Assembly (NCBI GenBank): GCA_008632985.1
Contig: QPGO01000123.1
Span: 62,001-126,000, forward strand
Direction of reading: 5' to 3'
Length of the DNA stretch: 64,000 bases
Source of the DNA: Psammoneis japonica
Lineage: Eukaryota
Both the position numbers and the translations under genes were made by a program. Below, piece after piece: positions 1 through 58,249 of this stretch (position 1 is the first letter of the stretch; each line of letters begins with the position of its first letter). The notes below the pieces were generated by a model. The model was given only the letters and a program-made list of their open reading frames with translations, was not told where the DNA came from and ran no database searches.

Positions 1-274
1 ATATACCTCATACTTTGTTGGTCTCAATATCAGTACCGGTATGCAGTATAGCACAACAAAACGAATATGTAAAGGAGAGCTAAAGTTTAGCTACAGTCCG
101 TTAGATAAGAAAAGATAGAATTAGAAATTGTCTTTCATTGCGTCTGTCAGCCATTCCATTCGTCACAGCGCACCTGCACCCAATGCGATAGCGAAAAGCC
201 CTACTACCGGTATCCTGACGCCTCACGGATGATGATGTTCTGCCTCTTGCAATTTATTATACTGCTCAAGCTTT

Positions 275-1507
275 TTAACACGCATTGGCCACCGGGACAT
301 TCAACACATCTAAGGATGAGTTGCAGTTTGAAATGTAGTTTGCATCTGGGAATCCGTGTGGGCCACCTTGAAGAGAAGTTTTGTGATGTATCGAAGCCCA
401 AGTGACAGCGTTGTCAGCACCGGATGTAAGAGACGTCCCCACTCGAAATGTCAAACCGTGAGTCCATGCATATTTCAATCGTAAAAGCAACTGCCGACCT
501 TCGTCATTGTTGGGGAGATAGGCTGTACGTACAGTGCCGTTGAATCTATGACCCGGATTCTCGTGATAGGAGCGTTGGTTGCCCGAGGGAATGTCGTACG
601 TGATCTCAATAGCCTTGGTATGCGGAAACCCCGGACAGTCCATACGTGTCATGGTGATGCTCATTTCACCCGAGGGGCTCTTCCCTTGCGGTTCCCCAAT
701 GGGTATGCGGCATGCGGGGCATTTCACGTCGTGATTGAGGTAGTCAAGGATGCATTTCGAGTGAAACGCGTGTGCACAGCCCTGAACATGCACAAACCGC
801 TGCTGAGAGAGAGGTTCCATACAAATGAGACAGTCCCCGGAGGCTCCTGAAGCATTCGATGATGGTGGCCTTAAACATCCCGTCACGGCGGTGCTTGTTG
901 CAAAGGATTCTGGAGCTGAATAATTGATTGTCTCGTTACGAACAGCGTTGGCCGGAACTGGTACCGGCGGTGGTAGTGGCGAGGTCGTGTTGGAGTTCGT
1001 GCCGACTTGAGAATCAGAAGAAGGTGCTTTTAGCACATCCAGCACATTGTTGCAGACTGCAATGTAATTGCTGTCTGGCCATCCACACTGGCCGCCCTCC
1101 AGAGATGTTTTGTGAGGGACTTGGGCCCAGATCAGAACATCTTGCTCTCCCGTTGTCTGAGACGTGCCAATGTCGAAAATGAGGCCCCGAGACCAGGCGT
1201 GCTTGAAGCGATCGAGAAGTTTGCGGCCTTCGCTCGTGTTGGGAAGGTACGCCTTGCGTGTGGATCCAGCGAAGGGGTTCCCAGGATTCTCGTGGTACGC
1301 GTGTTGAATTCCGGATGGAATTTCGTACGTAATCTCGATTGTCTTGGATTTCGGAGTGCTTGGGAAACTTTTTTTCTTGGTCACTCGTACAATCATTGTT
1401 CCCGATGGTGAAAGGCCACTGGTGGAAGAGCCTGCTGCATCAAGACTGGGAGGAGCAAAGTACGGGATCTTCTCCGAGCGATTGGCAAACGAAATGGAAC
1501 GTAGCAT
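275..1507 (-). CDS. Deltex-like E3 ubiquitin ligase, DTC-RING(H2)-DTC architecture
   Basis: ORF 275..1528, first ATG at 1507. RING-H2 CLIC...CAHAFHSKC...CPAC. Two Deltex C-terminal domain copies (SPSGxM, IxYxIPSGxQxxYHENPG, RxAYLP, IGTSxTxG, HKTSLxGG, PDxNY). Confidence 0.9.
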   Translation of the reverse strand: MLRSISFANRSEKIPYFAPPSLDAAGSSTSGLSPSGTMIVRVTKKKSFPSTPKSKTIEITYEIPSGIQHAYHENPGNPFAGSTRKAYLPNTSEGRKLLDRFKHAWSRGLIFDIGTSQTTGEQDVLIWAQVPHKTSLEGGQCGWPDSNYIAVCNNVLDVLKAPSSDSQVGTNSNTTSPLPPPVPVPANAVRNETINYSAPESFATSTAVTGCLRPPSSNASGASGDCLICMEPLSQQRFVHVQGCAHAFHSKCILDYLNHDVKCPACRIPIGEPQGKSPSGEMSITMTRMDCPGFPHTKAIEITYDIPSGNQRSYHENPGHRFNGTVRTAYLPNNDEGRQLLLRLKYAWTHGLTFRVGTSLTSGADNAVTWASIHHKTSLQGGPHGFPDANYISNCNSSLDVLNVPVANAC

Positions 1508-1822
1508 GGTCGTTGTCTGTTCTGACAAAGCCGATTTCAGCCTGGTCTCGCTTCAGAAAATAATGAACGCGAGATTTGCTTTCATATCTTTTTTTGAGTC
1601 GTGCCGACAAAGCTCCGGAAGATATCTTCCAAGAAAATTCTGACACCAGGGCTTAATTGTTGACGATAAATTCTGACAGTCGGTCATACTGTAAGTAATC
1701 ATCACCTCGTGCGTACGCGTCATAGGCAACTCAAAAAGATTTGAGTCGTGCCGGGAAATCGAGCAAAGATTGCAGGAATTCCAGATATCGCCTCATTTCT
1801 TCGTCTCTCTTCCTTTTGAAAG

Positions 1823-4674
1823 ATGCGGCTACCTTCTATTTCCCGTCTACATGGTCTAGCAGTGTTGCTCTGTACAGGCACTTTGGTTCATTCTAGGGTG
1901 CTTCAAGCCGATGAAAGGAGACGAGTCTTCATCCCTGGTCTTTTCGATGCCAAGAACTTTGGCTGGGGCGAGGAGGTGAGTCGAAATTAATGTGTTCTGA
2001 TAATCACGCTTTCCTATCTCGAGCAACGTCTCTCACGCCACAGTCTTTTTCTCTTCTCTATCGAAAGATCTTTAATGTCACAGTTTCTCTCATTAACAAT
2101 CACACGGATGCATGGTATGACGACATCTTTAGCGACGGAACGGAGATTGATTGGATGGTTGCGGACGCTGGATGCGATGCCACGGTTGCCTCGCGGGCAT
2201 ACTGGGATCTGAGGTCTGAAAACAATGGCACCAAACCACACGGAGTGGCAGGCTGTCGTTGCTCCAGTGCCTCCATTGCTGTGGCCATGATTGCCGGATT
2301 GGAGGGTGTTCCTCAAATGTCACCCAGCTCCACATCGGCGAGGCTCAGTGACGTACAAGACTTTCCATTCTTCTCTCGAGTTGTTTCATCCCAAGAGACC
2401 GAAGCGCTGGTATCTATGCTTCGATCCTTTGGATGGGACCGCGTAACAATCCTTGCGACTGACACGCAATACGCAGTTGACCAGATGAACGAGTTTCAGA
2501 GTTTGTGGGTTGGTAAGCACGACGATGAATCCGGTGTTTGGGATGGGGAGATATCGTATTCCCATACAATCGGTCTCCTTACCGATGGCTCCATCGATCC
2601 CGATTCAGTTCAACAAGCACTTGATGGTGTCCCCACGGACGACCCATCCATAAACTCAAGAGCAATCCTTCTCCTAGGCCATGATCAGCACGTGTTTCCT
2701 ATTCTCAAGATTGCTGCCGAATCAAGCTTCCAACCTGACACTATCTGGATTGGCACGCAGTCATGGATCAACCGCTCCCCTCCAGACGGCGACATGTCAT
2801 GGTTTCCCAGGTTTCCGGGCTACATTGGCCTCACTCCCTTTAGGAATCGCAACTCGCACTATCAAGATTATCTTAGCCGCCTCAACGATGTTCGCATCAA
2901 GAATGGAAGGAAGCCCTGGGATGAATTACCAGACTACGCTGCGGAGACCTTGGTTGATTCTATTTTGGCCATGGCCATGGCTCTGTCGAGAGTTCCGCAG
3001 GAAGGTCGTCTAGATGGTCATCTCGTTACAAAGGAGCTTCTTAACCTTTCCTTTAATGGCGTCAGTGGGCCTGTGAGCTTCACCGCCGAGGGAGATCGAC
3101 GCGATCCACGTTTCACGATATTCAATTTGCAACCAAGTGAGTCGAATGACTTGGAGTTCTCGTGGGTCGACGTTGGTATTGCCACAACAAGAGTTGGAGA
3201 GTCAAGTCCCGATAGGGAAAGCATTTGTTTTGCAGTGGCCGGATGCAGTCTTGATGAATTTCCCGACGACTCCTACCCCATCCCAGATGACCCTCCTTCT
3301 CCGTTACTCTATGTGATTATTCCCGTTGCGGTCATTCTTCTCATTGTGTTCGCTTTGTACTGTCGCACAAGAAGGAAGAAAAGGCTTTTGAAGGAGAGTA
3401 TGACAGATTTACAGAAACAGATGGAAAAAATGAATCAAATCGATGGAGAGCTTATTGACATTGACGAACAGGTTGCTGAAGCCAAGAAGCGACAGGCGCT
3501 GCTTATCCTCCAACGTGCAGAGCTTCAGGAAACGCCCGACACATGGTCGGATTCATTGCGCACCGTCGTGGAAGTCCCTCCCGAGGATGAGCAGTATTGG
3601 ACAGTTCTGGATCGCATGAGGAAATCCATGGACAACGTCCATATCTCTAAGCTCTGGCGTATCCAAAACACGTCGCTATGGTCGTACTATTCGTTTCATA
3701 AGGATCGTCTCCTTACTCATGGAACTGATCATGGAGAACGACACGTTTGGCATGGAACGTCCAGTCTAGATCCGTCAGTCATCTATAACGACCAGCAGGA
3801 TGGATTCATGATGCAGTTCGCCGCCGAGGGCTTCTGGGGTCGTGGAATATACTTCGCAGACAAGGCAGATTATTCTTCGCACTATTCTTTCACACCATCA
3901 TCAGGCTCAATTGCTTCATCTTTGTTTTGCTCTAGTTCAAACTCTCGTCCTGCCGGTCGCAAAGACGAGCGCGAGATGTTCTTGGCGAAGCTTCTTGTCG
4001 GGAAAGATGTCCTCTTGGATCGCGACGTTAGTTCAGCAAAAGCTTCCGAATACCGCAAACTCACTGTTCCTCCCACGGACAACAGAACAGGTCTGAAGTA
4101 CAACACGGTCACAGGCCACACAGGTGGCTCCCAGGTTTGGATAGTCTATGGTGCGACCTCGTTGTTCGTGAAACTCTCCCCGAATGAATGTGAATTTCTG
4201 ACTGATTGCATTGCCTTGTCTCATCGCCGCAACACAGAGAATGGAAGAGCCTACCCAGACTATCTCGTAAGGTACTACGTCGGTGATAGAGACCCAAATC
4301 GCTCTCCCTACGAGTCTATGCAAGAAGCATGCAAGAATAAGCAAGTGCCCGAGAGTGCTGTCGATGATCTCAATGCCGCGGAAATGGGCATCAAACGCTT
4401 CACCTCGAGTAGTGCAAGCACCGGTAGCAGCAGCGGAAGCTCTGACTACACATGGGAGTATCTCGACAACTCAGGATGGAAAGCATACTCGGCTTCACAT
4501 CAGTCGATTATTGAGCAGGCGTACCAGGACTTTACTTCGAACAACGACCCATCATGTGTGGTGCAGATTCAAAGTGATTCTTGGATCTATGAGGTTGATT
4601 TGTCACTCCTTCGTCAGACAAATACGGAGCATCCGGGTCATAGGCAACGCGATGTGAGGAGAAGGGTACTTTGA
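1823..4674 (+). CDS. Single-pass receptor: signal peptide, ANF-receptor/Venus-flytrap ectodomain, TM helix, coiled coil, PARP-family ADP-ribosyltransferase, C-terminal WWE domain
   Basis: Predicted exons 1823-1975, 2068-4150, 4238-4674 (GT-AG introns 1976-2067 and 4151-4237; the second restores QVWIVY-ENGRAYP). VFT motifs VAGCRCSSAS, VPQMSPSSTSARLS, FPFFSRV, FGWDRV, FNGVSGPVSF. TM LLYVIIPVAVILLIVFALYC. PARP motifs RIQN, WHGTS, GRGIYFA, AYPDY. WWE WEYLDNSGWKAY...IEQAY...YEVDL...RDVRR. Confidence 0.88.
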
Positions 4675-5402
4675 TCTCATCCTCCACGTGGTAAATTCCA
4701 TTGCTGTGGACCCATTGCGCAGTTGGCAAAAACCCCGGTCTGCGGTTTGTGCATGTACCTAACACTTGCTTACGTTGTAGACTGTCCATTTTAAATAAGA
4801 CATGCATGAGTGCAGCTCTGTATTCCTGTGATGCAAGAACATGGTACCAGCACATTCAGCCTCGGCATTGCCACCATCCCTCCTCGCCGAATGATCATTG
4901 CAACTCTTTAGGGCCCCTCTCTAGAGTAGAGCTAGTAGATATTCTATTCAGCTTTGGCTTATTGGCTTTCAGAACGCAAGCAATCGCAAGCGTCAAAGCG
5001 AGCATTTAGAGAGAGCATAGCTACCGTAGCTACTCTTTAGAGAGCTAGATAGCAGTCTCAAAGTTACTTATCAGCAGGAGCGCCTAAGACGCATAGATGA
5101 TCTATGCGTGTTGCTATTCTCTACGGTATTCTCATAAATCAAACGTACTTGTACTCTTCGCCATGGCGTTTGGTAACGGACTGCTGCTCTACTTTAAGAG
5201 ATAGATAGTCATCGTTTGGCTGGGACCTGGTTCAATTCATTGGTGTCTCTCTTTGATTTTGCGCCTCTAGATTGTTTCACGCATTGATGATTTTGGGAAT
5301 GAAACTTTTTTGAAAAGTGTGCTTCATCGATCTCTGCCTTCCGACTCGATTAGATCAAGCGCCGCTTTTCTTATCCTCTCCATTGCCTACTGATACTAAA
5401 AG

Positions 5403-6266
5403 ATGAAGACTCTTACAGAGGAAGCACTGGGAGGCTTCTCTGCCGGCGTGGTCGGAACAGTGATTGGCTTTCCTCTCGACACCATCAAGGCTCGCCAACA
5501 AGTGCTGCAGTCGGGCAAAAGTATTGTCGGTACCGCCTCCACAATTTTTCGGCAAGAAGGCATTCTCGCGTTTTACCGAGGCCTTGTTCCTCCTCTACTT
5601 TCGCTCAGCATTCTCAACACGCTGAATTTTACCTCTTATGCATACTTTCAAACTAAATTCAAGGCGCAACGAGGTTGGGATGCAAAGAATGCTCTTGCTG
5701 GAGCTCTGGTTGGACCGCTCGCTTCGACGGTTTCCACGGTTGAAAATGTCATCAAGACTCAAGTGCAACTCGACAATGTGACTGCAAAACGCTATCAAGG
5801 AAGCTGGGATTGCGTAAAAGTGCTAATCAAAGAAAACAAGCCCACCGTATTGTACTCAGGTCATGCGGTCAACACCGCTCGAGAAATGGTCTTTATCTCA
5901 ACGTATTTTGGAGTCTATGAAGGCATTCGTCAGGAGCTTGCACATTGGCATCACGCGCGAGGCGATCCAGAAATCAATCAATGGGCCATTCCCACCGCGG
6001 GCGGGTTGGCGGGAGCCATTGCGTGGGCCGTGAGCTTTCCGCTCGATTGTGTTCGAGCGGGTGTGCAAGGGCAAGATTTTTCCAAACCACGAAAATCGGC
6101 CGTGCAGGTGTTTCAGAACTTAATGGCAACCAAGGGAATAGGAGGACTCTATTCGGGTGTAACGCCCAGCATTGTGAGAGCCTTTTTGGTTTCTGGGAGT
6201 CGCTTTTCTGCATATGAGGGAGCTCTGTGGCTGCTGCGAGGAGGTCGCGATAACAAGCATGATTGA
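5403..6266 (+). CDS. Mitochondrial carrier family (SLC25) protein, carnitine/ornithine-carrier-like
   Basis: Three carrier repeats with Px(D/E)xx(K/R) signatures (FPLDTIK, TVENVIK, FPLDCVR) and FYRG/LYSG motifs; 287 aa. Confidence 0.9.
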   Translation: MKTLTEEALGGFSAGVVGTVIGFPLDTIKARQQVLQSGKSIVGTASTIFRQEGILAFYRGLVPPLLSLSILNTLNFTSYAYFQTKFKAQRGWDAKNALAGALVGPLASTVSTVENVIKTQVQLDNVTAKRYQGSWDCVKVLIKENKPTVLYSGHAVNTAREMVFISTYFGVYEGIRQELAHWHHARGDPEINQWAIPTAGGLAGAIAWAVSFPLDCVRAGVQGQDFSKPRKSAVQVFQNLMATKGIGGLYSGVTPSIVRAFLVSGSRFSAYEGALWLLRGGRDNKHD

Positions 6267-13815: not shown

Positions 13816-15032
13816 ATGATGATGGGCTTTTTGATGGCGAAGTTGGGGGTTTTGCTCTGTTGCGGGCTTCCCGTTGCGTCAGGATTCGGTTCTCCAGGCA
13901 GTTTTCGACCCATAAAACACTCCTTTCGAGTTGCGCCCGTTGTTGGACGGCCTGGCCATGGTTTCTCTGTGAATAAGCAGAGCTCAAGCCTATCGATTGG
14001 TGGGTCAAGCACTCCTACTACTGGTCCTGAGCTCCCTGCGGCATCGACTGCCGTGAGCTTTGAAGATTCCGGGAAAAAGCGGTTCCCTTTCCGATTGTCC
14101 TTTGGCGGTTCACAAGGCCTCATACTCTGATTGGATCGGCTTTAGCAATTCCATCTCTCTGTATTTTTGCAGCTCCAACTTTTCGGTCTGCCTTTACTGT
14201 CAAAACGCTTGTTGCCATGGTGTATGCAATGATTCCCTCGCTTCTCATGAACCTTTACATTACGGGTCTCAATCAAATTACTGATGTGGAGATTGACAAA
14301 ATCAACAAACCCGATCTTCCAATTGCAGCCGGCGACCTCTCCAAGAAGAATGCAATTGTTGTCGTTTTGATTTCGTTGATTGTATCGCTGTGGATGGGAG
14401 TGGCGCATCCTGTTCTTGGCACTCAAGGATTGAATGTCGCACTCTGGGGAAGCGGTATTCTCGGAACAATGTACAGTCTCCCTCCTTTCAGGCTCAAGCG
14501 CTTTCCAGCCCTCGCCGCGTTTTGTATTGTAGCTGTACGCGGATCAATCATAAATGCTGGATTCTTTGCTCATGCACAAGCGGCAGCGTTTGGCGTCGAA
14601 GGAGCATCGGTTCTTTCGTGTCTCATGAATGATCGTAGATGCATGCTGTCGAGTGCCTTCTTTGCTGTATTTGGAATGGTCATTGCGCTCATGAAGGATG
14701 TTCCAGATGTAACGGGAGACGCCATGTCAAACGTTAGAACCTTTTCTGTGCGAGTTGGTCAAAAGAGAATCTTCAAGTATACAAGAAAGCTGCTGACGGC
14801 GCTGTTTCTTGGCTTTGGGGGCGGCTTTCTCATGTCTGCCTTTGACACGCCTTCGAAGGTTGTTGGTACTTGTAGATTGCTTGTTGGTGTGGCATCTGTC
14901 ATGGGCGGCATTTCGGTACGGACAGAAGCCGAGTCGGTCGATCCCGAGAATAGCAAGCAAGTGTACCAGTATTACATGCACTTGTGGAAGCTGTTTTACC
15001 TTTCATACCTGGTTTTGCCGTTTGCAAGGTGA
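13816..15032 (+). CDS. Homogentisate prenyltransferase (UbiA family; phytyltransferase/VTE2-like), plastid-targeted
   Basis: Signal peptide ending VASG-F. LWRFTRPHTLIGS, NQITDVEIDKINKPDLP, KDVPDVTGD, LWKLFY. One apparent 1-nt indel near 14088 joins ORF 13618..14130 to the 14217..15032 frame. Confidence 0.85.
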
Positions 15033-15221: not shown

Positions 15222-18200
15222 TCAAAAATATTCAGCATAGGACGTTCGAGCGCCAATCAGACGGTAGAACAGCCCGTCACGAGTCCAACTCAACGATGTA
15301 CAAGGATGCTTTGAATTACAGGCTGACTTAGGTCGCTTCGTCTCGCACATTTTGCATTTCCGAGCACTCTTGGAGTTCATGAACGTACATGCTTCGCAAG
15401 CCCATTTTGAAGATTTCGGTGGAGGTTTGGGGATTCTTCGGAGCCCGACGATTCGCTCAAGGTAGATGTGGACTGCGGCGAAGGACCAGCTGACACTTCA
15501 GATTCGGATTCTGGAGAACTCATGTCTGCCGTATGGGACGTATCACTCAGGACTTCGGGCTTCATTTCAACGTCGTCACTTTCTTCGAGGACGGGTTCCT
15601 CGTCCTCTTCAAGTGGTACAGTTCCGCCACATTGCGCGTTGGCTACTTTCAAGAGAGATGCATAAGTGGGCTCAAGTCCCGACGGCCACCCTCCAAACTC
15701 CTCGTCTTGGCAGCTGAGGCAACACTTCCATTCTTCGCCCTTGTTTGATTTCCACAAGCAGCAGGCTCGCCAAGAGCAGCTTTCGTGGAGCAAGACGACG
15801 AGGGCTCTGACAATATCTCTTTTTCGGATAGTACGCGACTAAGAGTCCATTCCTCGTCATCCGATGAATCCTCGCCATCGACGGACATCTCGTCGGAAGC
15901 TTGCTTGGCTGGGTCGGTAGCACCCTCGTCTTCTGATGACTTTTCTGAAGCTGTGGCGTCGGGGTCATTGCCTGGGCTCTCGACCTTGTCGTCGTTGGCT
16001 GGTTTCACATCCTCCTCGGCGTTTGGCTTGCTGTCCACTTGTTCATCCGCCACTTGATTGGCGGCGTTTGCTTCCTCCATTTCTTGGAGGCATTGTAGCT
16101 CCAACATTGCTTCTTTCTCTTCTTCCTCCTGTCGATACAAGGAAAGGAAAGCACAAGGTCAGCATATACCGCAACACAATCACATAGGGAGGTACGAGCT
16201 TGACAGACAAATCTTACCTGTTTCCTCTGTTGGATGAGACTCCACTGATACAGGATTGCATGAAAACTTCGGTGAGAAAACGCACGAACGTCAATATCAC
16301 GAGAACACCGTATTGATAACACTTACAGTCACTTCCAATCCGAAAACAAAGGATACCGTATCGTAACCCTTCATGGCCGCCCGAAAGACGGGATCATCCA
16401 CCGTATCGGTGGAATGGTGGTGGCTCCAGTGCCTCATGTTTTCTTCGTCGGGCATTCCGATTTGTTCCTGAAAATCTTCACCGCGTTCCGTCGATGCCGC
16501 CGCACAGCTCAACTCCACGTCGGTATTGTCGGTGCTGGGTGAGTCATCCATTGTGTCTGAATCAGCCTTCATAGTCATGAGCTTTGGAGCAAGATCGAGC
16601 CACTGTTCCTCCCACCAGCTCTGTAGTCGACGAGCATCGTCTGCAATCTCTTGTCCCGGGGACCAAACCTTGACAACATTGGCAAAGATGCGGTTCACGT
16701 CCTTGGAAAACTCCGACACGCTCTTGTATGCCCCGTTTTGATCTGCGGCAATCTCGATCCTCTTGCGGATCGCTCCCAAGTCGATTGGCTGACGAACAAG
16801 TTTCTCATAGTCTGCAATCGAGACACCGTATTCATCCGACTTGATTGGAGCGAGGAACTTGGCGGCGTCCTCGTGTTCAAACATTTGAGCTAACAGTGCC
16901 TTGCAAGCTTCCAATTGCTTTGGGAGATTCTTGGCTGCTTCCATTTCGGCGTGGTCCGCAATGATCTTGCACCGTTCGCAGCGAAGCTTGTCGTGCGTGT
17001 CTGGCAACAAGTGAAAGTGAACAAATGTGAGTATACACAAATCAAGTCAGTTTCTTCTAAGGCACAAGCTCGTTCTGCAAACTCACCAGACGGAGTTCCC
17101 TGTCTCATTTTGAAGAGATTACGCAAGTCCTTTGTACTAAGGGCATTCACTTGCTCCTTGTCATCCACGACGGACTGAAGACCCTCCTTGGACAGTTGGC
17201 GTTGAAAAATCTTTTCCAACAATTGAAAAAGGCGGATTGTGAGTATACAGGTAATAGGTAGTCAAGAAGACACAACCCCCATCCATCTCACCTTTTCTTC
17301 AACCGTCCCGGTGGCCAGAAAGCGATAGGTAAAGCAGCGCTTCTTTTGCCCGTCACGCCAGCAACGAGCAGCAGCCTGTTTATCGACGGCGGGGTTCCAA
17401 TCTAAATGGTATTCTTTGAGAAATGTTTCAAGTCACACGATTAACAAAAAAGAACATTCATTGCGCTTACCTGGATCAAAGAGAACCAGACGATTGCCTC
17501 CAATCAAGTTCAGGCCACTGCAGTAGAGGATGACAAATGAAGGAGAAAAAGAGTGAGACTTGATATCATCGACAGGAACAAGATTCAAAACAAATACAAT
17601 GTAGTTTAATACACACCATCCTCCGGCTTTGCTGGAAAGCAAAAAAGCAATGAGACTGCTGGAGGGATCGTTGAACTCGTCCACCATTTTCTGTCGCTTC
17701 TTCATGGTGATACTCCCATCGAGCCGACAAAAGCCCCAGCTATTCTCACGACACATGCGTCCAATGAGATCCAACGTCTGAGTATAGTTGGAGACGATTA
17801 CAATCTTGTCGGCGCCATTGCCCGGCTTGCGCATTTCCTTCATGAGTCGGTACAACACAAACATCTTGCCGCTCCACTCGGGACGGACCGGAGCATTCGA
17901 GTCGCCGCGGCGACCGCCTCCTCCGCCAGCTTCGTAGGGCAAAAACTTGGACAATCCCTCGGCACCAGGAGCGGCCGCTGTTTCTTGTTCCGAGTACTTG
18001 ATCTTTTTCGAAGCCGCCTTTCGTCCACTCCCCACTCCACTCGAATGATCCTCGGTCACGAGACGTGGATGGTTGCACAGCTTCATGAGCATTTGAATGG
18101 ACCCCAAACAGTTCTCTTGCTTGCCAGAAATGGCATGCTGTAAATGCTTGCTGTCTACCAAATGCTTGTACATGTTGGCTTGCATGGGAGTCGGTTTGCA

Positions 18201-19792
18201 GCACACCACCTGTACCAACTTTGGTGGCAGGTGCTGCGCATTGAGGGTATTGACACGACGCAAAATAAATTCATTCACGGTAAGACTCATGTCGTTTTGG
18301 ATTTCCATCATTCTGCGCTTTTGCGAATCCGTCGCGTCCGGTTCACGTCCACGGAGAATGGGAAAAAGAATGCGTTTGCGGAATTCCTCTTGAGTCCCCA
18401 TGACGCCAGGATTGGTAAAGTCCACCATGGCAAAGAATTCTTGCAAATCATTCTGCATGGGCGTGCCGGTGAGCAAGACGCGGCGCTTGACGGGGAGTGA
18501 CGCGAGTGCCCTGGAGGTTTGGTTCTCGCTATTCTTGAGACGGTGTGCTTCGTCACACACCAACAAGTCGCAACAGTCCTTACTCTTGGTGAGCCGGCCC
18601 ACATGTGTGCGAATGCATTCATAGCTGGCAATGAGAACATTAAACATTTTGGTTCGTACAAACAAATCGATATTCTTCTCCACCGTTTTCCGGTCCGCTT
18701 CGGCGAGCGCTAGAGTCTTGACCGTACCAGCACCAAGCCACTTGATGAATTCATTGTCCCAATTCTTGACGAGCGAACAGGGACAAACCACAATGACGCG
18801 TCTGGCGGTGGGCTCGCGATTGGCGGTAATGCCAGTTTTCAAAAGAGTGTAAATCAGCGTTACCGCCTGGATCGTCTTGCCGAGGCCCATATCATCGGCA
18901 AGGATACATCCGTTTCCTTTGAAACTCTTGGACTTCAAGCCCATGACACAGGCATACATGAATTCCACACCTTCCCGTTGATGTGGACGAAGCCACTTTG
19001 CGAGAACCGGCGGAACAAAAACATTTTCCTTGGCATACGCCGAGTCGGGGGCTGTTTTAGAAGTAGAAATAGCAATACGCATTGTTAGATTAAAAAGGCA
19101 GGGTTTTGCTTTACATGAATAGGCGCGGAACTGATTCCTACCTGGTCGCAGAACCGTCACAGACTCTTCCACGCCATACTCGTCGGGTTGCATTTCCGTC
19201 ACACTGTAATTACAACAAATAGGATAATAGAGCGTTAGAAAACTGGCATGATTCACATACTACAACAAAGCGATAGCATAGCAAGTACTTACAAGGTTGG
19301 TGGAAGCCCCAGCGCTTCTCCACCCTGATGAGGCGACGTCCAGACGCAGAGCGGTTCAAAGGGCTTTTCATTTTCATTTTCATCGTCGTCTTCTTGTTCA
19401 CTATCCGAACCACTCTCGTCATCCTTCGAACGAGCTGCTGTGCTTGGCAACTTGTACGCGAGTCCCCGTCCGGCCCGTGCCATGAGTTTCACCATGCCGT
19501 CCATGCGTCGGCGTTGTCCCAGAGACGATTGACGCAACGCCGCATCGGCGCTCTTGTTGTAGGCACGCCGCTTGGTCATGGGGCGTTGAAATTTCTTTTG
19601 TAGCGAAACCGAAAGGCCAACCATGACGGGAGCGCGTTGAACGAGAATGCGTTGGCCCGGTTGAAAGAGCTTGTTGGAGGAATGACATGATGATGTGTTG
19701 CTGCATGTTGTTGTCTTGATTGTAGTTGTTGCATTGACACGACGGCCGTCGGCACCAAACGAACCACGCGATCGCTTACGACCCGCCAACAT
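15222..19792 (-). CDS. RAD54: Rad54-like SNF2 ATPase with C-terminal bromodomain, Cys-rich module and RanBP2-type zinc finger (multi-exon)
   Basis: [84 protein letters not shown]. Bromodomain in 16297..17040. [10 protein letters not shown]...CKMC near 15330-15410. The 3' end is uncertain because of indels near 15785 and 15430. Confidence 0.85.
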
Positions 19793-23200: not shown

Positions 23201-23552
23201 TGCTCACAGAAACGTCAAAAAGAGGGTGCAGAGTCGAATCGTCGAGTGCTCTGTCTGGGATGGAAGTGGGTCACGGCACTCGCGATGTAAAACGCCGTTA
23301 TCTGAACGGATAAAATTATTCGTATTCGAGGATAATTTATTTCGCGCCGGGCCCTTGTTCAGTTACTCGTCACAACATACAGTATAGTAACACACGCAAC
23401 AAAAAACAAACGAACAACGTGATGTGGAAGGGCAAGTGGCAAGTGGCAAGCTGGGCAAACTCATTATTTGCAATCATTGCTCTTCTCTCAGTGTGAAGGA
23501 GTTTGCTTTCTTTTTGCGCACGTAAATCGAAAAATATCCTCATTTAGTCGTG

Positions 23553-25442
23553 ATGTGGTCTTTTAGAATAAGAGGTTTGGCCAAGAAAGCGCTCGCAGCT
23601 TCGACAGCAGGTCCGATTGGCGCTTCTGTGTTTTATAGCGGTTACGTTTATGCAACAACGCCAGAGGACCAAATTAGTGTTTCTCATACCGCGTATAGCA
23701 TTTATGTGCAGAGTCTGGTAAACTTGATAATGTCAAAACTTGGAGAACGTTCTCTCAAGAATCTTGACAAAAATTGCGAAAGCGCAGTCTCAGAGAATGA
23801 ATCCTTCCTGTTAGAACTGTTGGAAAGAAACAAGAATACTCAGTACGGAAAAGATCACGATTTCGATCAAATCAAGTCAAGAGAGGATTTTCAGAAAAGG
23901 CATCCAATCACGAATCATGAGTATTACTCCCCATACATCCACAGAGTTGTGGAAGGCGGCAACAATGTCATGTTTCCAGAGACACCCAGAATGATTGGAG
24001 AAACTTCTGGGACATCAGGGACTCGAAAGCTACTTCCGATAAACCCACTGCAACGACGCGTGTTTTTCTCCGAGGGGATTGGAATCACCTTTGGTGTCCT
24101 TGAAAACGGGATTCGAGAAAGAACAAAAGGAAGAATATCGTGGCCAAACCTTCAAAAGTCTTGCAAGCTCATGTTTACGCCAAGATATAGCTACGCAAAG
24201 TGCGGCCTGAGAATCGGACCTAATTCGTCTGCTCCGGGTGATAATAAAACTTTGCTTCAGCTATACACGACACCCCCGGATGCTTGGGAGGTGCAGGATC
24301 AGAACGCCATGCTGTTTCTGCATTGTCTTTATGCGTTGCTCGACAAAAACATGGGATTCATTGAATCGAACTTTGCTTCGGGCGTCTTTAACTTTTTCGT
24401 TTGTATAATGGACAACTGGGATGATCTCATGGCCACAATCGAGACTGGAACTTTACCACAGCATCTCAACATTGATGCCTCTGTAAGGCAAAATTTGGAA
24501 CGAGGCCTTCAGCGCAACCCGGATCGAGCAAGTGAGTTGAAGATAATACGGCAGGAAAAGGATGGAGCTTCACTCGCACGACGCATTTGGCCCAGCCTGC
24601 ATACGATTTTAGCAGCCGACACTGGATCGTTCCATATCTACGGAGAAAAGCTGAGAAAAGAATTTATTGGAGACGATGTAGCAATTTATGCTGCGCTATA
24701 CGCAGCTACTGAAGGATTGATTGGCGTCAATCCAGTCATAGAGGAGAAAACTTATGTCCTACAACCTCGCGCCATGTTTTTTGAATTCTTGCCCATTGGT
24801 AGCAACGTTCGAGATACAACACCACTTTTGTTCCTGGAGCAGCTGGAGGTTGGAAAAGACTATGAAGTGATAATCACCAATCTCACCGGCTTGTACAGGT
24901 ATCGATTTGGCGACGTTGTCCGTTGTGTGGGGTACAAAGGCGAAGCTCCTATAGTACAAGTTGCCTATCGAAAAGGTCAATTTCTGAACGCAATGGGAGA
25001 GCAAACATCAGAAGAAGACTTTTACAGAGCTCTCTCCACAGCTTGCACCCTCGACTGGAACATGGAGCTTGGGGAGTACTCGGCTGTCGAGTACTTTGCT
25101 CGAACCGTGGGTGAGCGAAAGCCCCGATACACGGTGTTTGTCGAACTCAAAGGAAAAGAAGCGAACAAAGAACGCCTTCCAAAGGCCATGACAAGGCGAG
25201 AAATGAAGGCGTTTGATCTCAGACTCTCTCAAGTAAACGAAATGTACGCTCTTTTCAGATCAACCGGGCGGCTTCATCAGGCAGAGGTGATATCTGTGCT
25301 CCCTGGCACTTTTGAGAAAGTTCGAAAAGCAATGATAGAAACGGGTGTAAGTCCAAGCCAGCTCAAAGTACCGAGAGTATTGCGGAATGAACGGTTGATC
25401 AGTATTCTCGAACAGAACTCTGTTACAAAATATCAGCACTGA
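23553..25442 (+). CDS. GH3-family acyl-acid amido synthetase (GH3/GHDC-like)
   Basis: ETSGTSGTRK, YAATEGLIGVN, FFEFLP, GLYRYRFGDVV, QLKVPRVL; intronless, 629 aa. Confidence 0.9.
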   Translation: MWSFRIRGLAKKALAASTAGPIGASVFYSGYVYATTPEDQISVSHTAYSIYVQSLVNLIMSKLGERSLKNLDKNCESAVSENESFLLELLERNKNTQYGKDHDFDQIKSREDFQKRHPITNHEYYSPYIHRVVEGGNNVMFPETPRMIGETSGTSGTRKLLPINPLQRRVFFSEGIGITFGVLENGIRERTKGRISWPNLQKSCKLMFTPRYSYAKCGLRIGPNSSAPGDNKTLLQLYTTPPDAWEVQDQNAMLFLHCLYALLDKNMGFIESNFASGVFNFFVCIMDNWDDLMATIETGTLPQHLNIDASVRQNLERGLQRNPDRASELKIIRQEKDGASLARRIWPSLHTILAADTGSFHIYGEKLRKEFIGDDVAIYAALYAATEGLIGVNPVIEEKTYVLQPRAMFFEFLPIGSNVRDTTPLLFLEQLEVGKDYEVIITNLTGLYRYRFGDVVRCVGYKGEAPIVQVAYRKGQFLNAMGEQTSEEDFYRALSTACTLDWNMELGEYSAVEYFARTVGERKPRYTVFVELKGKEANKERLPKAMTRREMKAFDLRLSQVNEMYALFRSTGRLHQAEVISVLPGTFEKVRKAMIETGVSPSQLKVPRVLRNERLISILEQNSVTKYQH

Positions 25443-52300: not shown

Positions 52301-53738
52301 TTGATGCTCATCTGTGATGCACTCTAACAGAGCAAGCCTTGATCAGAGCTCTGCTCAACACCTGGTCTGTGGCAGCAAGAGTTGAAGACAGGACATTTGT
52401 TTGCTTGACAGGGCATCTCCAGTGTGCCAGAATGGTCCATTGCTTGACAACATGACTGTCTCTCATCTGTTCCAACCAGTGCCTGGAGAGGCCCCTCTGC
52501 TGGCACATGTGAGGTGGTGGTCTTCAACTTTGCACCACTCTCCTTTCTTGGCCCAGATCTGCCAGCAAACATGCCCTTTGCTTGGTGACACAGTGGCTCT
52601 TTGCAGCCACTTTGCAGCTTCCCACTGGCCTCTTCTTTCACTGTTGCCATTTGTCACTTCATCCTTGCCCCCTTTCTCTCTTGTTGTGGGGCATCTTGCA
52701 ACCCTCTCCAAGGTGACAACTCTCTCTGCCTGGTGCTCCAATTCTGGGTTCTCCTGGACTTGACATCTCTGGCTCAAGGTCTGTCATTGCTTCTGCCTTG
52801 TGCTGCAACCAACCAGATGGCTTGTCCAAGAGTGCATCAGACACAGGAGGATGGCAGAGTTGAGAGCGACAGATGGCAACCGACCTGTTGAATGTTCGGC
52901 ACAAATCGGGTGCCAATGAGAGACAGTGGTCTCTGTGCCTCTCCCCATGCAAATTGGGGGTTGACTTTCAGGATCTGCTTTTACATCACTCACTCAATGC
53001 AGAAGCAGTGCACAGGCCTGTGAGCACCACACAAGTCACAGCAGCAAGCTCGCCCCCATTTCTTGCCAAGTCTGGCGCTGTGTGTTTTTGTTGAGTTTCA
53101 AGAGAGAGAGCCTCACTTGCAGCCAACGCCACCCCCATTTTGTGGCTCTCCAATCAGAGCTCCAATTCTGGGTTCCCTCAAATTTGGTGTCTCTGGCTCA
53201 AGGTTTGGTGCCCATGGCTTGCGCCACAATCAAAGAGCTTGTCCAACAAGAGGCACATCATCAGACACCAGAGGACAGCAGGGTCAAGAGCACCAGAGAG
53301 GGCAATCGACCCATTGATTGATGAGAGCAGCAGATGGCATTGACAACCATGACAGAGACAACAAGTGAAATTGCCATGTCAATTGAAATTGAACACAAAG
53401 CGTGTGGTGAACCATGGGAAGATACCGGCAGGACGAAGCACAATTGCAATTGCCTTCAGGCATTTGTCCAAAGGTCGGAAAGTGTGAATCCCTTCAGTGA
53501 CACTGACGGACCTGTGACAATGGAGCGGCTGACGGACCCCCACAACGTAAAACATATATAATGTCAATACGCAACCGCAACAGTGCAGTGAGCATCGGAT
53601 GTTGAAGCCGAAATGCAGTCTCGTATGTTCCTCTTTTACTTGCACAAGACTATTCTGCGGTGCCACAGCATTCTAGACATGCCTCTTTGGATTGAGCTCA
53701 CGAGGCAAGACGAAACGAACTGAAAAATTGAGTAAAGC

Positions 53739-55692
53739 ATGACAAATAATAACATGAGAGTCGACACGGAAGATGGCATGAAGGATGGTGCGCCTGCTCC
53801 CAGTTGGGAGGACAAGGAGCTTCGTCTCGATCAAGCCCCTGAATTGATAAAGAATGGTAATCACATCTACATTGGCAGCACCGCCTCGACCGCCGAAGCG
53901 ATTCTTCGAGCCATCGTGGATAGCTGGACGCTGCAAGATATTCAAATTATTCAAATGATTCCTGGAGGTAACTTGCCCCACTTGCAAGAAAACCTTGATC
54001 GGTTCCGAACGTCTTCCTTTTTCAGTTTCACAAAGAGCGCCTTTTATAAAACAGAGGAGCGGGAAGCACTCGCTGACTACACGCCAATTTCAATATCGGC
54101 CGTGCCTCGATTGCTTCAAGAAGGAAAGCTCTCTGTCGATGTTGCCATCATCAAGGTGACTAAACCGCACAAGGGATTTTGCAGTTTGGGATTTGGAGTT
54201 GAGTGCACACGCGATTTTATCAAATACGCCAAAATTGTCGTGGCAGAAGTGACGACTCACATGCCATGGACCGAGGGGCATTCCAAGATCCATGTTAGCG
54301 AAATTGATTGGTGGGTCATGGAGGACTCGCCTCTGAAAACTGCGCAAGAGCTCTGGCCAGACTATATACAGTCTGTGCCTTATTCACAGGAGGTGCTGGA
54401 TGGCATCGGAAAGAACCTTGTGAAAGAGATTTCCGACGGCGCCACACTCAAATTTGGTTTAGGACCAGTTCCACTTTCTGTGACCCGTTTCTTGCATCAG
54501 CGAAAGAACATTGGCCTTCATACGGATGTGCTGGTAGAGGAACTCTTTCGCTTGCAGCTTGATGGCGTCATAACTAACACAGCAAAGGCAGTTGATACTG
54601 GTAGAACTGTCGTGGCACAAGCTTACGGGAGTCGCGAGTTATATGAATTTCTCGACCGCAATCCAGCTATTGAGTTCCAGCCGAGCAGCTACGTGAATGA
54701 CTACCGAATCATGGGACAAATCGAAAATCTTGTCGCGATTGTGGACGCTCTTAAAGTTGACTTGACAGGTCAGGTGGCTACAGACTCGATTGCGCACAAC
54801 TTTTACGGCAGTGTTTGGAGTGTCGATGACTCCATTCGTGGTGCTCGATTCTCACGTGGCGGGAAGCCGATTGTTGCGTTGCCCTCTAAGAGTTTACGTG
54901 GGCGCTCCAACATTGTGCTTGCATTGCCACCAGGTACAGGAGTCTCCATTACTCGATCAGATGTGGAGTACGTTGTGACTGAGTACGGAACTGCTTATCT
55001 TTATGGTAAACCGATTCGAGAGCGCTGCTTGGCACTGATCGACATTGCTCATCCGGACTTTCGAGATGAACTTCTTATGGAAGCCAAGCGCCGCCACTTT
55101 GTTTCAGAGTCCCAACCCGGGTATTCCTTTAGTAGTACGTATCCAAAAGAGATCGAGTGTACACACACAACTCGGAATTTCAAGACTGTCTTTGTGCGAC
55201 CAATCAAGGCGGTTGATGAGGACATGCTTCGAAGCTTCTTTCACAAGTTGTCTGATCATTCTGTCTATCTGCGTTACTTTCGCAAAATGCCTTCCTTGCC
55301 CCAACGGATTCTACAAAAGTTTGCCGATGTTGACTATTCAAGCGACATGGCTTTAATTGCACTTCACCCCCACGATTCACCAACCCCGATCTCGTTGGAA
55401 TCGCTCAGTGGATTTCCGATCCGCACGACGGAATTCCAGAAGTTGCGTTTCAGGTGCGAGACGATTGGCAAGGACAAGGATTGGGCTTGTTTCTTTTCTC
55501 TATTTGGTAGAAGTATCCAAATTCTTCGGTGGTGTCACTCATTTCAAAGCTGATGTGCTAGTTGACAACAAAGCCATGCGAAGTGTGTTTGAGAAGTCTG
55601 GCATTGAATACACTAGCCGTACCGAGTTTGGTGTATGTATCTATGTGTTCACCATCCCCAAGCGAAAAACGGATCTTCTTGCTATAAAGTAG
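53739..55692 (+). CDS. Acetyl-CoA hydrolase/CoA-transferase fused to a C-terminal GNAT acetyltransferase
   Basis: IYIGSTAS, DVAIIKVTKP..GFCSLG, DGATLKFGLG, IGLHTD, VDLTGQV, SRGGKPIVALPS, VVTEYG, IAHPDFRDEL, then RPIK..DE..L..FF..LS..SVYLRYF and EVAFQVRDDWQGQG. One apparent indel near 55390. Confidence 0.9.
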
Positions 55693-56397: not shown

Positions 56398-58173
56398 TTA
56401 AGCAAATAGACTCTTGATGACTGCCTGTACACTCAGCTTCTTCAAGTGATTGTACTTTTGTCCCGTCCCAACAAACACAACGGGAGCACCCGTGACATGC
56501 GTCATGGTCAATGCGGCTCCGACCTTGTCACTAACTGTATCAAACTTGGTCAGTACAATGCCATCAATTTGTCTGGAATGACCGCCCGATCTCAGCGCTT
56601 TGTTAAACATGGAAAGCTGGTCCATTCCATCGTTGCCCACGAGTGCCTCGCACACAAACAGGACCAGATCCGGTTGGTTCTCCACCACAAGCTTGGACAA
56701 GGCCTTCATGAGAGGCACGTTATTTTGCATACGCCCGGCCGTGTCCACCAAGACAACATCGTGCTTTTCTTCAGCAGCATGGGCAATAGCCGCCTTGGCC
56801 ACGGCGGCAGGGTCCTTGGCATATCCCTTGTGATAGAGAGGCACATCAAGACACTTGGCATGGACATTGAGCTGTTCGACCGCACCACTCCGAAAGGTAT
56901 CACAAGCCGCCAGCATGGGAGAGCATCCGTTGGATTTCAGGTAGTAGGCAATCTTCGCCAAGGACGTGCTCTTGCCGACTCCATTGATACCCACCATGAC
57001 AATCACATAGGGCTTACCGCCACCGCCGCCGCCAAAGAAACCACTCCCATCTCGCTTGGTTACAACCGAACGAAGCAAATCCACTTCTCGACCCTTGGTG
57101 GGTTTGAGAATCTTGGCAATGGCCACCTCCAACGCTTGTCGCACCGCCGTCTTGACGCGATGAAAGGACTGCATCTTTTTCCCCACCAGCTTGACTCGGA
57201 CTCCGTCACAAATTTCCTTGGCGATTTCACTCGCTACATTTTTCGACGTGAGCATGCGTTGCATATCCGCGAGTGGTGCCTCCAAGTCGGCTTGTGTCAG
57301 AACCTTGTTTCCCGACATTTGATCCATGAGTCCCTTGAGCGATGCTCCCCATCCAGCACTCGTCGTTGCATCATCATCATTATCGTCCAATTCTTCTTCT
57401 TGTTCCCACGCGGGTACTTCGTCCGAATCTGGTAAATAGGCGGCTCGGGCTTCTGCCAAGGCACGTGCATCGTCCACTTCAATCCCGCTCGCCACAACCT
57501 CCTTGGACCGATCCAGATTGGCCATGGCTTCCTTTGTTACCTTGGCATTTCCATCATGCCATACCGTCTTTTCCTTGCCCTTTTTTGGCTTGTTCTTTTT
57601 ACCCTCATCGACTGCTGCAGCAGCACGGTTTGTCGATTCCGTCATGATGACCGGTTCCTCGTTGTTGCTGCTGCTAGTACTGCTGGTTTGTTTCAACAAG
57701 ACGGAAAAGGTCGAATCAAACAGAGTGCTATCCAACACGGGTTGTTGCTCGTTCGATTGTGATGATTCAAACAAATCATATTCCTTGAGGGAAGACTGCA
57801 GCAAGTGTCGAATCCACACTACAGACTTGCGTCCCCGCAACACCACTTCGGGATACACTGCAATAGACAATTTGTCCATTGCGTCTTCCCATTCCACAAC
57901 GACTCCTCCATCCAGGGTGGTTCGTTTGGTTGTAATAGATTGAGTAGCATCCAATAGGGTCGAAGAGATGAATTTGTTAATCACTAAAGTCGTCTCTTGC
58001 AACAAACCATGGGAGGGGTCCTTGTATTGGTAGAGAACGAGACCGCCTGCAATTTTCAGACGAGAGCGAGTGTGAGTCAGAAAGAGGAATTGGCAACAGA
58101 ATACGTTAGATTTTCGACCTGGAAAAGTTATCTATTCCGTACCTTTTGAGATTATAGTTAGAGATTCAATCAT
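56398..58173 (-). CDS. SRPRA: Signal recognition particle receptor alpha subunit
   Basis: Exon 1 58173-58143 (MIESLTIISKG), GT-AG intron 58142-58047, exon 2 58046-56398. GINGVGKSTSLAK, ACDTFRSGAVEQL, DTAGRMQ, TKFD, FVGTGQ. Confidence 0.95.
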
Positions 58174-58249
58174 CCTTACAGTGTTGATCTTCGCTTCAGC
58201 GGCCCTCTTTACTTTATTACAGTAACTATGGAAGCTTGTGTGTACAGTA

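Follow-up and report, generated by a model that had tools for sequence, protein, structure and literature searches.

Can one gene carry a ligand-binding ectodomain to the far side of a membrane and an ADP-ribosylating enzyme to the near side, and so encode a receptor that signals by mono-ADP-ribosylation? The question is raised by a locus of Psammoneis japonica, at positions 1823-4674 of a stretch of 64,000 nt (GenBank assembly GCA_008632985.1, contig QPGO01000123.1, positions 62,001 to 126,000 of the forward strand), which as a whole is called the window here. An initial annotation, made from the letters alone, had placed at this locus a signal peptide, a Venus-flytrap (VFT) domain, one transmembrane (TM) helix, a juxtamembrane coiled coil, a PARP domain, and a WWE domain in one spliced frame. 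We recovered all these elements where it had put them (the leader by eye), and we assign a probability of roughly 0.6 to the reading that the gene encodes a single-pass enzyme-linked membrane receptor with a mono-ADP-ribosylation output. To our knowledge, all known enzyme-linked receptors have kinase, phosphatase, or cyclase outputs or, in the case of TIR receptors, cleave NAD+; if the reading is true, a receptor that writes mono-ADP-ribose would be a new output chemistry for transmembrane signalling.

The gene model on which this reading is built is as follows:

1823-4674, forward strand: receptor-PARP gene, three exons; spliced coding sequence of 2673 nt, giving 890 aa with a single terminal stop
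1823-1975, forward strand: exon 1, 51 aa, ATG at 1823; the frame shifts before the long open reading frame (ORF)
1976-2067, forward strand: intron 1, 92 nt, GTGAGT...AAAG
2068-4150, forward strand: exon 2, one open frame of 2083 nt with VFT, stalk, TM helix, coil, and PARP as far as the strand of the third triad residue
4151-4237, forward strand: intron 2, 87 nt, GTGCGA...ACAG, in frame and stop-free, between the last two PARP strands
4238-4674, forward strand: exon 3, last PARP strand (E-N-G-R-A-Y-P-D-Y-L), Ser-rich linker, and WWE, with TGA at 4672-4674

Residue numbers below are those of P0001, the translation of 2068-4674 with intron 2 read through, unless they are called spliced; spliced numbers equal P0001 + 51 up to residue 694 and P0001 + 22 after residue 723. 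Both predicted introns are supported by transcript-derived diatom homologs. In a nine-row alignment, none of the seven full-length diatom homologs (among them three MMETSP transcripts flagged as complete and a UniRef entry of Helicotheca tamesis) has the 29 residues that intron 2 would encode, and in the same seven the exon 1 block F-G-W-G-E-E runs directly into the I-F-N-V that starts at 2068; the end of exon 1 aligns with the homolog block I-A-G-L-F-D...F-D-W-G. The best matches in a search of 1.84 billion representatives cover query residues 1-694 and restart at 724, thus bracketing the intron-coded residues 695-723, which form a low-pLDDT loop in the cytosolic structure model if they are read through. 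For intron 1, the acceptor at 2067/2068 was chosen because the homologs continue with E-[IL]-F-[DN]-F-T; the alternative AG at 2042-2043 (exon start 2044, in frame) was rejected, as it would add eight residues with no counterpart in the homologs. Retention of intron 2 would insert its 29 residues between the last two PARP strands, beside the third triad residue, and could serve as an off-switch at the level of splicing.

Could the model instead be an artefact, in which a gene for a VFT membrane protein and an adjacent PARP-WWE gene have been misread as one? For this organism the model was read from genomic sequence, and many relatives in the databases are incomplete, their sequences stopping or starting near query residue 591. 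We nevertheless regard this explanation as very improbable. The VFT, the TM helix, the coil, and the PARP domain to residue 694 share the one stop-free exon of 2083 nt, and because of this the fusion of ectodomain and enzyme does not depend on the splice prediction. In several diatoms, homologs derived from transcripts have the three domains together in a single complete ORF. The fragments are put down to gene calls based on ORFs that ran across introns in relatives, and the breaks near residue 591 probably mark such an intron.

Within the spliced frame, the following parts are recognised, for which the Pfam matches on P0001 are all above the gathering scores:

1823-1894 (residues 1-24), forward strand: signal-peptide-like leader, with MRLPSISRLH, a hydrophobic core of 12 residues, and VHS/R
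2128-3135, forward strand: VFT domain, Pfam ANF_receptor PF01094 at 3.4e-42, residues 21-356
3226-3303, forward strand: stalk, with a conserved Cys-x5-Cys loop and the motif P-x-D-x-Y-P-[VI]-P just before the membrane
3304-3363 (spliced 464-483), forward strand: single TM helix, followed on the cytosolic side by RTRRKKR
3373-3528, forward strand: juxtamembrane coiled coil of ~50 residues, continuous with the TM helix
3556-4281, split by intron 2, forward strand: PARP (ARTD) catalytic domain, Pfam PF00644 at 6.1e-11, residues 514-660
3751-3753, 3850-3852, and 4135-4137, forward strand: triad codons for His, Tyr, and Val, in the motifs WHGTS, GIYFA, and SQVWIVY
4447-4662, forward strand: C-terminal WWE domain, Pfam PF02825 at 6e-14, residues 794-865

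Pfam thus bears out the three domain assignments of the initial annotation, and its single TM helix is matched by the hydropathy profile, in which only one window of 19 residues has a mean above 1.6 (peak 2.95), with the RTRRKKR stretch behind it.

What the ectodomain might sense is suggested by its nearest relatives. The VFT begins in exon 1 directly after the leader, with the motif V-F-I-P-G-L-F-D. By sequence, its best solved relative is the VFT of mGluR7 (8e-18); the AF2 model of the domain (pLDDT 95.2, pTM 0.90) has as its top Foldseek match the amino-terminal domain (ATD) of mGlu8 (6e5v_A, E 2.4e-21, TM score 0.72/0.70), with further matches to GABA-B, CaSR, and NPR-C. Three positions, S66 (conserved in 44/46 sequences), S85 (46/46), and T/S89 (43/46), align to the Ser/Thr motif in the pocket region of mGluR7, which we take to be a contact for the amino-acid ligand in mGluRs. 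Conservation of this pocket motif is only a lead towards an amino-acid-like ligand.

Between the sensor and the enzyme, the stalk cysteines C387 and C393 are each conserved in 45/46 sequences, and AF2 predicts one unbroken helix (model residues 2-63, P0001 425-486) that comprises the end of the TM segment and the coil. Conserved hydrophobic residues in P0001 436-487 are spaced 4-3-4-3 with a periodicity of 3.4-3.5, and for this reason the segment is read as a coiled coil. Behind it stands the invariant P490-x-T-W493, about ten residues ahead of the start of the PARP domain.

The arrangement across the membrane can be judged from two further features. The only conserved cysteines (C36, C65, C387, and C393, at 44-45/46) all belong to the ectodomain, and the cytosolic part of the 46 sequences has none; the five N-x-S/T sequons in the first 470 residues, the part that was scanned, are likewise all in the ectodomain. 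These features support a topology in which the VFT would lie outside the cytosol and PARP-WWE inside it. Such evidence fits the lumen of an internal compartment as well as the cell surface, and the protein might accordingly be imagined as a sensor in the ER (endoplasmic reticulum), Golgi, or vacuole that uses ADP-ribosylation to inform the cytosol of the state of metabolites or stress in the lumen. We consider this improbable: the VFT-TM receptors of this fold (mGluR, CaSR, GABA-B, and NPR) are surface receptors, the C-terminus has no retention motif evident by eye, and the ectodomains of sister families are of kinds (Cache, CUB, and EGF) that typically serve extracellular sensing. A loose similarity in favour of a lumenal sensor is offered by PARP16, for which the excerpts available of two reviews give membrane anchoring (PMC4245714) and a role in ER stress (PMC9189837).

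Is the cytosolic enzyme of the kind that transfers single ADP-ribose units? The initial annotation had quoted the motifs WHGTS, GIYFA, and SQVWIVY as an H-Y-V triad, and they are present as quoted. H562, G563, Y595, and F596 are invariant (46/46), and the third triad residue, V690, is Val in 39 sequences and Ile in 7; together with the conserved positions of the VFT and the WWE, we read this as purifying selection on function. In the alignment with PARP14, H562 falls on H-G-T and Y595 on Y-F-A, and in the homolog P0192 the Ile equivalent to V690 aligns to the Leu in K-L-F-V-V-F of PARP15, which is presumably the third triad residue of that protein. The triad of PARP15 is given as H-Y-L, and H-Y-hydrophobic as the mono-ADP-ribosyltransferase (mono-ART) motif, in the portion of PMC9189837 consulted, in agreement with the meaning first attached to the triad here.

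The nearest relatives of the domain, by sequence and by fold, are of the same kind. A phmmer search finds PARP14 (1.2e-11), then PARP15 and PARP12; the AF2 model of the cytosolic part (window 3337-4671, with intron 2 read through; pLDDT 83.2) consists of the helix, a PARP fold, a disordered Ser-rich linker, and a confident WWE, and Foldseek with the catalytic domain returns PARP15 (7otf_A, E 8.2e-14, TMt 0.82), then PARP12, PARP14, PARP10, and tankyrases. The nearest clusters in a language-model atlas are PARP11- and PARP12-like (0.93-0.90). The Pfam PARP match is partial, covering profile positions 11-134 of 199. By predicted fold and triad, the PARP domain is a member of the mono-ART (H-Y-hydrophobic) class.

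Membership in a class does not by itself make an enzyme, and the domain might be a pseudoenzyme that binds NAD+ or ADP-ribose, or acts as a scaffold, with no transfer; recruitment would then be the way in which the protein signals, as has been suggested for plant RCD1/SRO and for PARP13. Inactive WWE-PARP proteins are indeed on record in the excerpts consulted (PMC4245714; PMC9189837), and the Pfam PARP scores in the clade of the window gene are modest and partial (6.1e-11; 11-134 of 199). What makes this explanation a poor candidate in our judgement is the conservation described above: the NAD+-positioning His, the Tyr, and the adjacent Gly are unchanged in 46/46 sequences, with V or I always in third place, whereas the inactive human members have lost the His, as far as the available part of PMC9189837 goes. 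If the intron-coded insert is disregarded, moreover, the model shows the whole PARP fold at high confidence.

The WWE domain would supply the means of reading the mark. It is modelled with pLDDT 94-97, matches the WWE of RNF146 by sequence (E 0.033), and has the WWE signature residues W796 (46/46) and W804 (45/46). In the alignment, Y798, Y841, Q850, and R861 correspond to Tyr107, Tyr144, Gln153, and Arg163 of RNF146; Y841, Q850, and R861 are each found in 46/46 sequences, and position 798 is aromatic in all 46 (Y 25, F 20, and W 1). In RNF146, Tyr107 and Gln153 hold the adenine, on which Tyr107 stacks, and Arg163 contacts a phosphate, according to an excerpt of PMC10877565. The adenine and phosphate contacts are therefore among the residues kept, which favours the earlier description of this WWE as of the ADP-ribose-binding type. 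Judged from these residues, binding of ADP-ribose or an ADP moiety is plausible and is the more likely alternative to iso-ADP-ribose, for which specificity is doubtful.

Several known systems share parts of this layout, and none shares the whole. Receptor guanylyl cyclases of the natriuretic peptide receptor type, to which the initial annotation had compared the gene, likewise have a signal peptide, an ANF_receptor VFT, one TM helix, a coil before a cytosolic enzyme, and presumably a dimeric state, and the NPR-C ectodomain (1jdp_B) is a structural match to the VFT (TM score 0.66/0.70). The analogy holds for the layout and stops at the output: no cyclase (PF00211) or kinase-homology match was found in P0001 by Pfam at E up to 1, the output is instead a PARP fold with a WWE, and the coil directly extends the TM helix. 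Class C G-protein-coupled receptors (mGluR, CaSR, and GABA-B) provide the best sequence and fold matches to the ectodomain as well as the Ser/Thr pocket motif; in contrast to them, the protein has one hydrophobic segment only, no 7tm_3 (PF00003) match to P0001 in Pfam, and neither a seven-helix domain nor a class-C-type cysteine-rich domain.

On the enzyme side, human PARP11/12/7 and PARP14/15 have the same H-Y-hydrophobic catalytic domain and, in PARP11/12/7, a WWE in the same polypeptide. They are described, in those parts of PMC9189837 and PMC11269756 at hand, as soluble, with the WWE ahead of PARP in the chain and with zinc fingers or macrodomains in addition. In the protein described here the WWE comes after PARP, at the C-terminus, Val takes the third triad position, and a TM receptor carries the module. 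PARP16 also has its PARP domain tethered to the membrane, but by a C-terminal anchor, with an H-Y-Y triad and no sensor ectodomain. Other membrane-anchored PARPs listed in the accessible portion of one survey include a sponge TM-PARP and Rhizarian clade 3 PARPs with TM and H_lectin, the latter hinting at an extracellular binding domain; all those in that portion lack a VFT, a coiled coil, and a C-terminal WWE (PMC4245714).

The gene appears to belong to a large and modular family of diatoms. The initial annotation had proposed that the architecture be sought in other stramenopiles, and a search with the cytosolic part as the query returned 105 proteins, 70 of which combine ANF_receptor with PARP and 53 of which have ANF_receptor, PARP, and WWE. 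Wherever the organism of a member can be read from its name, it is a diatom: Helicotheca tamesis, Fragilaria crotonensis (5), Seminavis robusta (2), and Conticribra weissflogii; the organism name of one more MMETSP member starts with 'Tric'. P0005 and P0019 are MMETSP transcripts marked complete. Matches with ANF_receptor only, at 55-80% identity to the juxtamembrane part, were considered as a PARP-less VFT family and rejected, as many of them break near query residue 591 and represent truncated ORF calls. From these sequences, the receptor type appears to be widespread in diatoms.

Such abundance contrasts with what surveys have reported, namely that diatoms appear to lack PARPs (PMC2964712) or that one species, Thalassiosira oceanica, has at least two, with no VFT or Cache receptor in the survey (PMC4245714), both as far as the excerpts available extend. 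The family sequences are public under automatic names such as 'Poly [ADP-ribose] polymerase', 'polymerase 11', or a JGI domain string. In full-text literature searches, which left one possibly relevant review out of reach, the architecture was not described, and as far as we have searched this is an enzyme-linked receptor with a new output, neither characterised nor described; the initial annotation had likewise known of no characterised example.

Two arrangements of the cytosolic modules have to be distinguished, which we call type A (the cassette TM-coil-PARP-WWE, as in the window gene) and type B (with the order TM-WWE-PARP). Among 27 close VFT relatives that were scanned, 5 are of type B (ANF_receptor-TM-WWE-PARP), 3 have ANF_receptor and PARP, 11 have ANF_receptor and WWE (probably truncated), 1 has ANF_receptor and TIR_2, 1 has ANF_receptor and WW, and 6 have ANF_receptor only. 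Named examples of type B come from Cylindrotheca closterium and Stauroneis constricta, and the VFT relatives that were added to alignment A4 have 33-47% identity. Type-B receptors resemble the window gene in their homologous VFT, single TM helix, H-Y-I/V PARP, and WWE; they differ in the reversed WWE-PARP order, which is that of PARP11/12, and in a separate PARP clade. The TIR_2 case (P0154, ANF_receptor followed by TIR_2 at E 2.5e-6) is borderline, with 28.4 bits against a cut-off of 28; it would give this sensor family a second output that consumes NAD+.

Sensors are exchanged as well as outputs. L001, a metagenome contig, encodes in one ORF of 1170 aa a leader, a Cache domain, one TM helix, PARP, and WWE in type-A order, and its cytosolic part has 49% identity to that of the window and scores 1e-95 against a type-A profile hidden Markov model. 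P0100 has CUB and EGF domains ahead of the same TM-coil region, and P0103 combines Peripla_BP_6, PARP, and WW. Among 61 relatives of the L001 ectodomain, 30 join Cache to PARP, 18 of these with a WWE in type-B order; the Cache-PARP set includes a 'polymerase 14' of S. robusta and MMETSP transcripts. A further 8 of the 61 carry Guanylate_cyc on the L001-type ectodomain, 2 of which (from Amphora coffeaeformis and Nitzschia inconspicua) also have PDEase_I, and these Cache-TM-cyclase(-phosphodiesterase) receptors have no PARP at all. Their ectodomains (P0391, P0397, and six more) have 36-39% identity, 6 of the 8 spanning the full 721 residues and 2 spanning 85-88%.

A quick maximum-likelihood tree of 77 PARP domains (of 84 supplied, seven Cache-type rows with truncated domains having been dropped, and L001 not being in the tree) separates 45 VFT type-A domains and 6 others from 23 Cache and 3 VFT type-B domains by branches with an SH-aLRT of 100 and about 2.6 substitutions per site. 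VFT and Cache sensors thus each join two PARP clades, and Cache sensors also join cyclase and phosphodiesterase outputs; for this reason we view PARP as an interchangeable receptor output. This apparent swapping of modules, read from domain order and the tree, is the strongest indirect evidence for the receptor-output interpretation.

The gene divergent from the receptor adds a possible downstream step, and its place in the window is as follows:

275-1507, reverse strand: Deltex-like E3 ligase of 410 aa with the layout DTC-RING-DTC, Pfam DTC PF18102 at 5.3e-81 (two stretches) and zf-RING_2 at 3.6e-10
1508-1822: intergenic region, 315 bp between divergent start codons

The gap of 315 bp is a possible shared promoter. 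The best solved match of the ligase is the RING-DTC of DTX1 (6y5n, 7.5e-36), to which the blocks I-H-H-K-T and G-[YF]-P-D align, and its N-terminal half is a second DTC, not the tandem WWE of the classical DTX1/2/4. A search with the protein gave 186 matches at E <= 0.001; coverage of the query is 97% in the best 7 of the 120 listed, and this points to a DTC-RING-DTC layout shared with relatives. Among the matches listed, the sources named are Attheya, Cylindrotheca, Amphora, Pseudo-nitzschia, and Conticribra. DTC domains bind NAD+ or ADP-ribose. In animal immunity and Wnt signalling, ADP-ribose is linked to ubiquitin, and the head-to-head Deltex gene suggests that such a link may exist in an algal signalling pathway too.

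How general is this pairing? Of 52 metagenome loci of the receptor family that were searched by tblastn with the Deltex-like protein, one (L018) gave a match, with a RING and the start of a DTC running off the contig end, divergent from a receptor-PARP gene with 51% identity to that of the window. L009 and L019, with about 0.8 kb of upstream flank, have no DTC among the ORFs scanned. Linkage to Deltex as a general rule was therefore rejected, with 1/52 loci positive and L011, L014, and L015 negative. Two further linked pairs are hinted at by contigs of equal length: P0013 (a receptor with 75% identity) and P0242 (a Deltex with 61% identity) are each on an ENA contig of 424786 bp, and P0106 (receptor family) and P0239 (Deltex) are each on a JGI contig of 15401 bp. 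We conclude that the association of receptor and Deltex is real in this sub-lineage, not general, and that a functional link is a hypothesis. In the same set of loci, of which 40 of the 94 listed ORFs were scanned for domains, L011 has on its forward strand (64-3668) a GAF-domain ORF and a hybrid kinase ORF (HisKA-HATPase-receiver), 2-5 kb upstream of the receptor-PARP gene.

The human genes for DTX3L and PARP9 are likewise arranged head-to-head, around a bidirectional promoter, in the sections of PMC11251020 consulted. That pair, too, joins a PARP-family gene to a RING-DTC Deltex gene, whereas the diatom Deltex is a DTC-RING-DTC protein without KH/RRM and is paired with a PARP that has kept its His and belongs to a membrane receptor. 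This parallel bears on a further explanation, in which the protein would be an immune or danger receptor and not a sensor of nutrients or infochemicals: its ectodomain would recognise a molecule derived from a pathogen, a virus, or damage, and its PARP domain would modify targets of the invader or the host, or drain NAD+, in the manner of antiviral PARPs and TIR NADases, with a Deltex partner as in PARP9-DTX3L. The nearest relatives of the domain are PARP14/15/12/11, and roles in immune responses for PARP11, 12, and 14 and in stress-granule formation for PARP15 are listed in the part of PMC9189837 available; the close VFT relative P0154 has a TIR_2 behind the membrane, and the family has expanded within lineages, with at least five named paralogs in Fragilaria crotonensis. 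Yet the VFT retains the small-ligand Ser/Thr motif of the class C receptors that bind amino acids, the same sensor families are joined to cyclase and phosphodiesterase, which are classical second-messenger outputs, and no macrodomain or other immune-type domain was found in the protein or in the window ORFs scanned. An immune role, which differs from the receptor reading in biology and not in mechanism, is in our view unlikely, if somewhat less so than a lumenal sensor or a pseudoenzyme.

Against the receptor reading and its extension to Deltex, a number of points have to be set. The gene model for this organism is drawn from genomic sequence and homologs, and the leader was recognised by eye. 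Plasma membrane location is assumed, the same topology fitting the ER, Golgi, or vacuole; dimerisation we only infer; and the enzyme activity of the PARP domain is a prediction from sequence and model. The plant WWE-PARP proteins RCD1/SRO are reported to be inactive (PMC4245714), and Val occupies the third position also in inactive PARP13 (Y-Y-V), though that protein lacks the His (PMC9189837), in both cases according to the excerpts available. The position of RNF146 Arg110 is taken by N801, which varies within the family, and the protein stops before the position of Lys175; because neither equivalent is kept, any ligand proposed for the WWE is tentative. The combination of a Cache sensor with the type-A cassette is known from L001, a single metagenome contig. 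As for Deltex, the three loci with long flanks other than L018 (L011, L014, and L015, the last two possibly from the same species) have no DTC, so that one of four such loci is positive, and the pairs P0013/P0242 and P0106/P0239, with their contigs of equal length, are no more than presumptive neighbours.

With these points in mind, the receptor reading suggests the following sequence of events. The VFT and the coil would hold two receptor chains together as a parallel dimer. A small ligand, which is probably an amino acid or a similar compound, would cause the VFT to close, and this closure would re-orient the two helices; their movement would switch the PARP domains, which would then use NAD+ to attach single ADP-ribose units to the receptor, to nearby substrates, or to both. 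The WWE could next bind the ADP-ribose mark on the receptor or its partners. In a last and speculative step, the DTC-RING-DTC ligase encoded head-to-head with the receptor might read or ubiquitylate the ADP-ribosylated products.

If this scheme is extended to the family as a whole, one arrives at a class of diatom receptors in which VFT, Cache, and CUB/EGF sensors sit on two independent TM-PARP/WWE cassettes that swap with cyclase and phosphodiesterase outputs, with ADP-ribosylation, in place of phosphorylation or the synthesis of cyclic nucleotides, as the second step and a mark that the protein's own WWE reads and a dedicated DTC-RING-DTC Deltex ligase takes over, so that membrane sensing would be coupled to ADP-ribose-directed ubiquitylation. 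We put this wider proposal forward tentatively, as a possibility that we would not yet bet on. Should the receptor reading be true, the mono-ART branch of PARPs, which is poorly understood, would gain a member that is controlled by a ligand and easily manipulated. Few receptors for nutrients, pheromones, and other infochemicals are known from diatoms, which are major primary producers.

Beyond the receptor and its neighbour, the 36 longer ORFs of the 95 ORFs of at least 130 aa in the window were scanned with Pfam, and no other gene for ADP-ribosylation was found among these 36. The scan identified the following:

5400-6266, forward strand: mitochondrial carrier (Pfam)
14064-15032, forward strand: UbiA prenyltransferase (Pfam)
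16297-19259, reverse strand: bromodomain and SNF2 helicase ORFs (Pfam)
23526-25442, forward strand: GH3-family ORF, complete with N-terminal, middle, and C-terminal domains (8.3e-64)
53736-55553, forward strand: acetyl-CoA hydrolase/transferase (Pfam)
56398-58131, reverse strand: SRP54-type GTPase gene, with a purine-rich region just upstream

The GH3 family is known for the conjugation of plant hormones to amino acids. In the purine-rich region, no tandem repeats were found between 58 and 62 kb, and the long ORFs on its minus strand have no Pfam match and translations that look non-coding. At 58001-62000, the forward strand has a purine excess, with a GC skew of 0.35 and 0.20 and an AT skew of 0.33 and 0.18.

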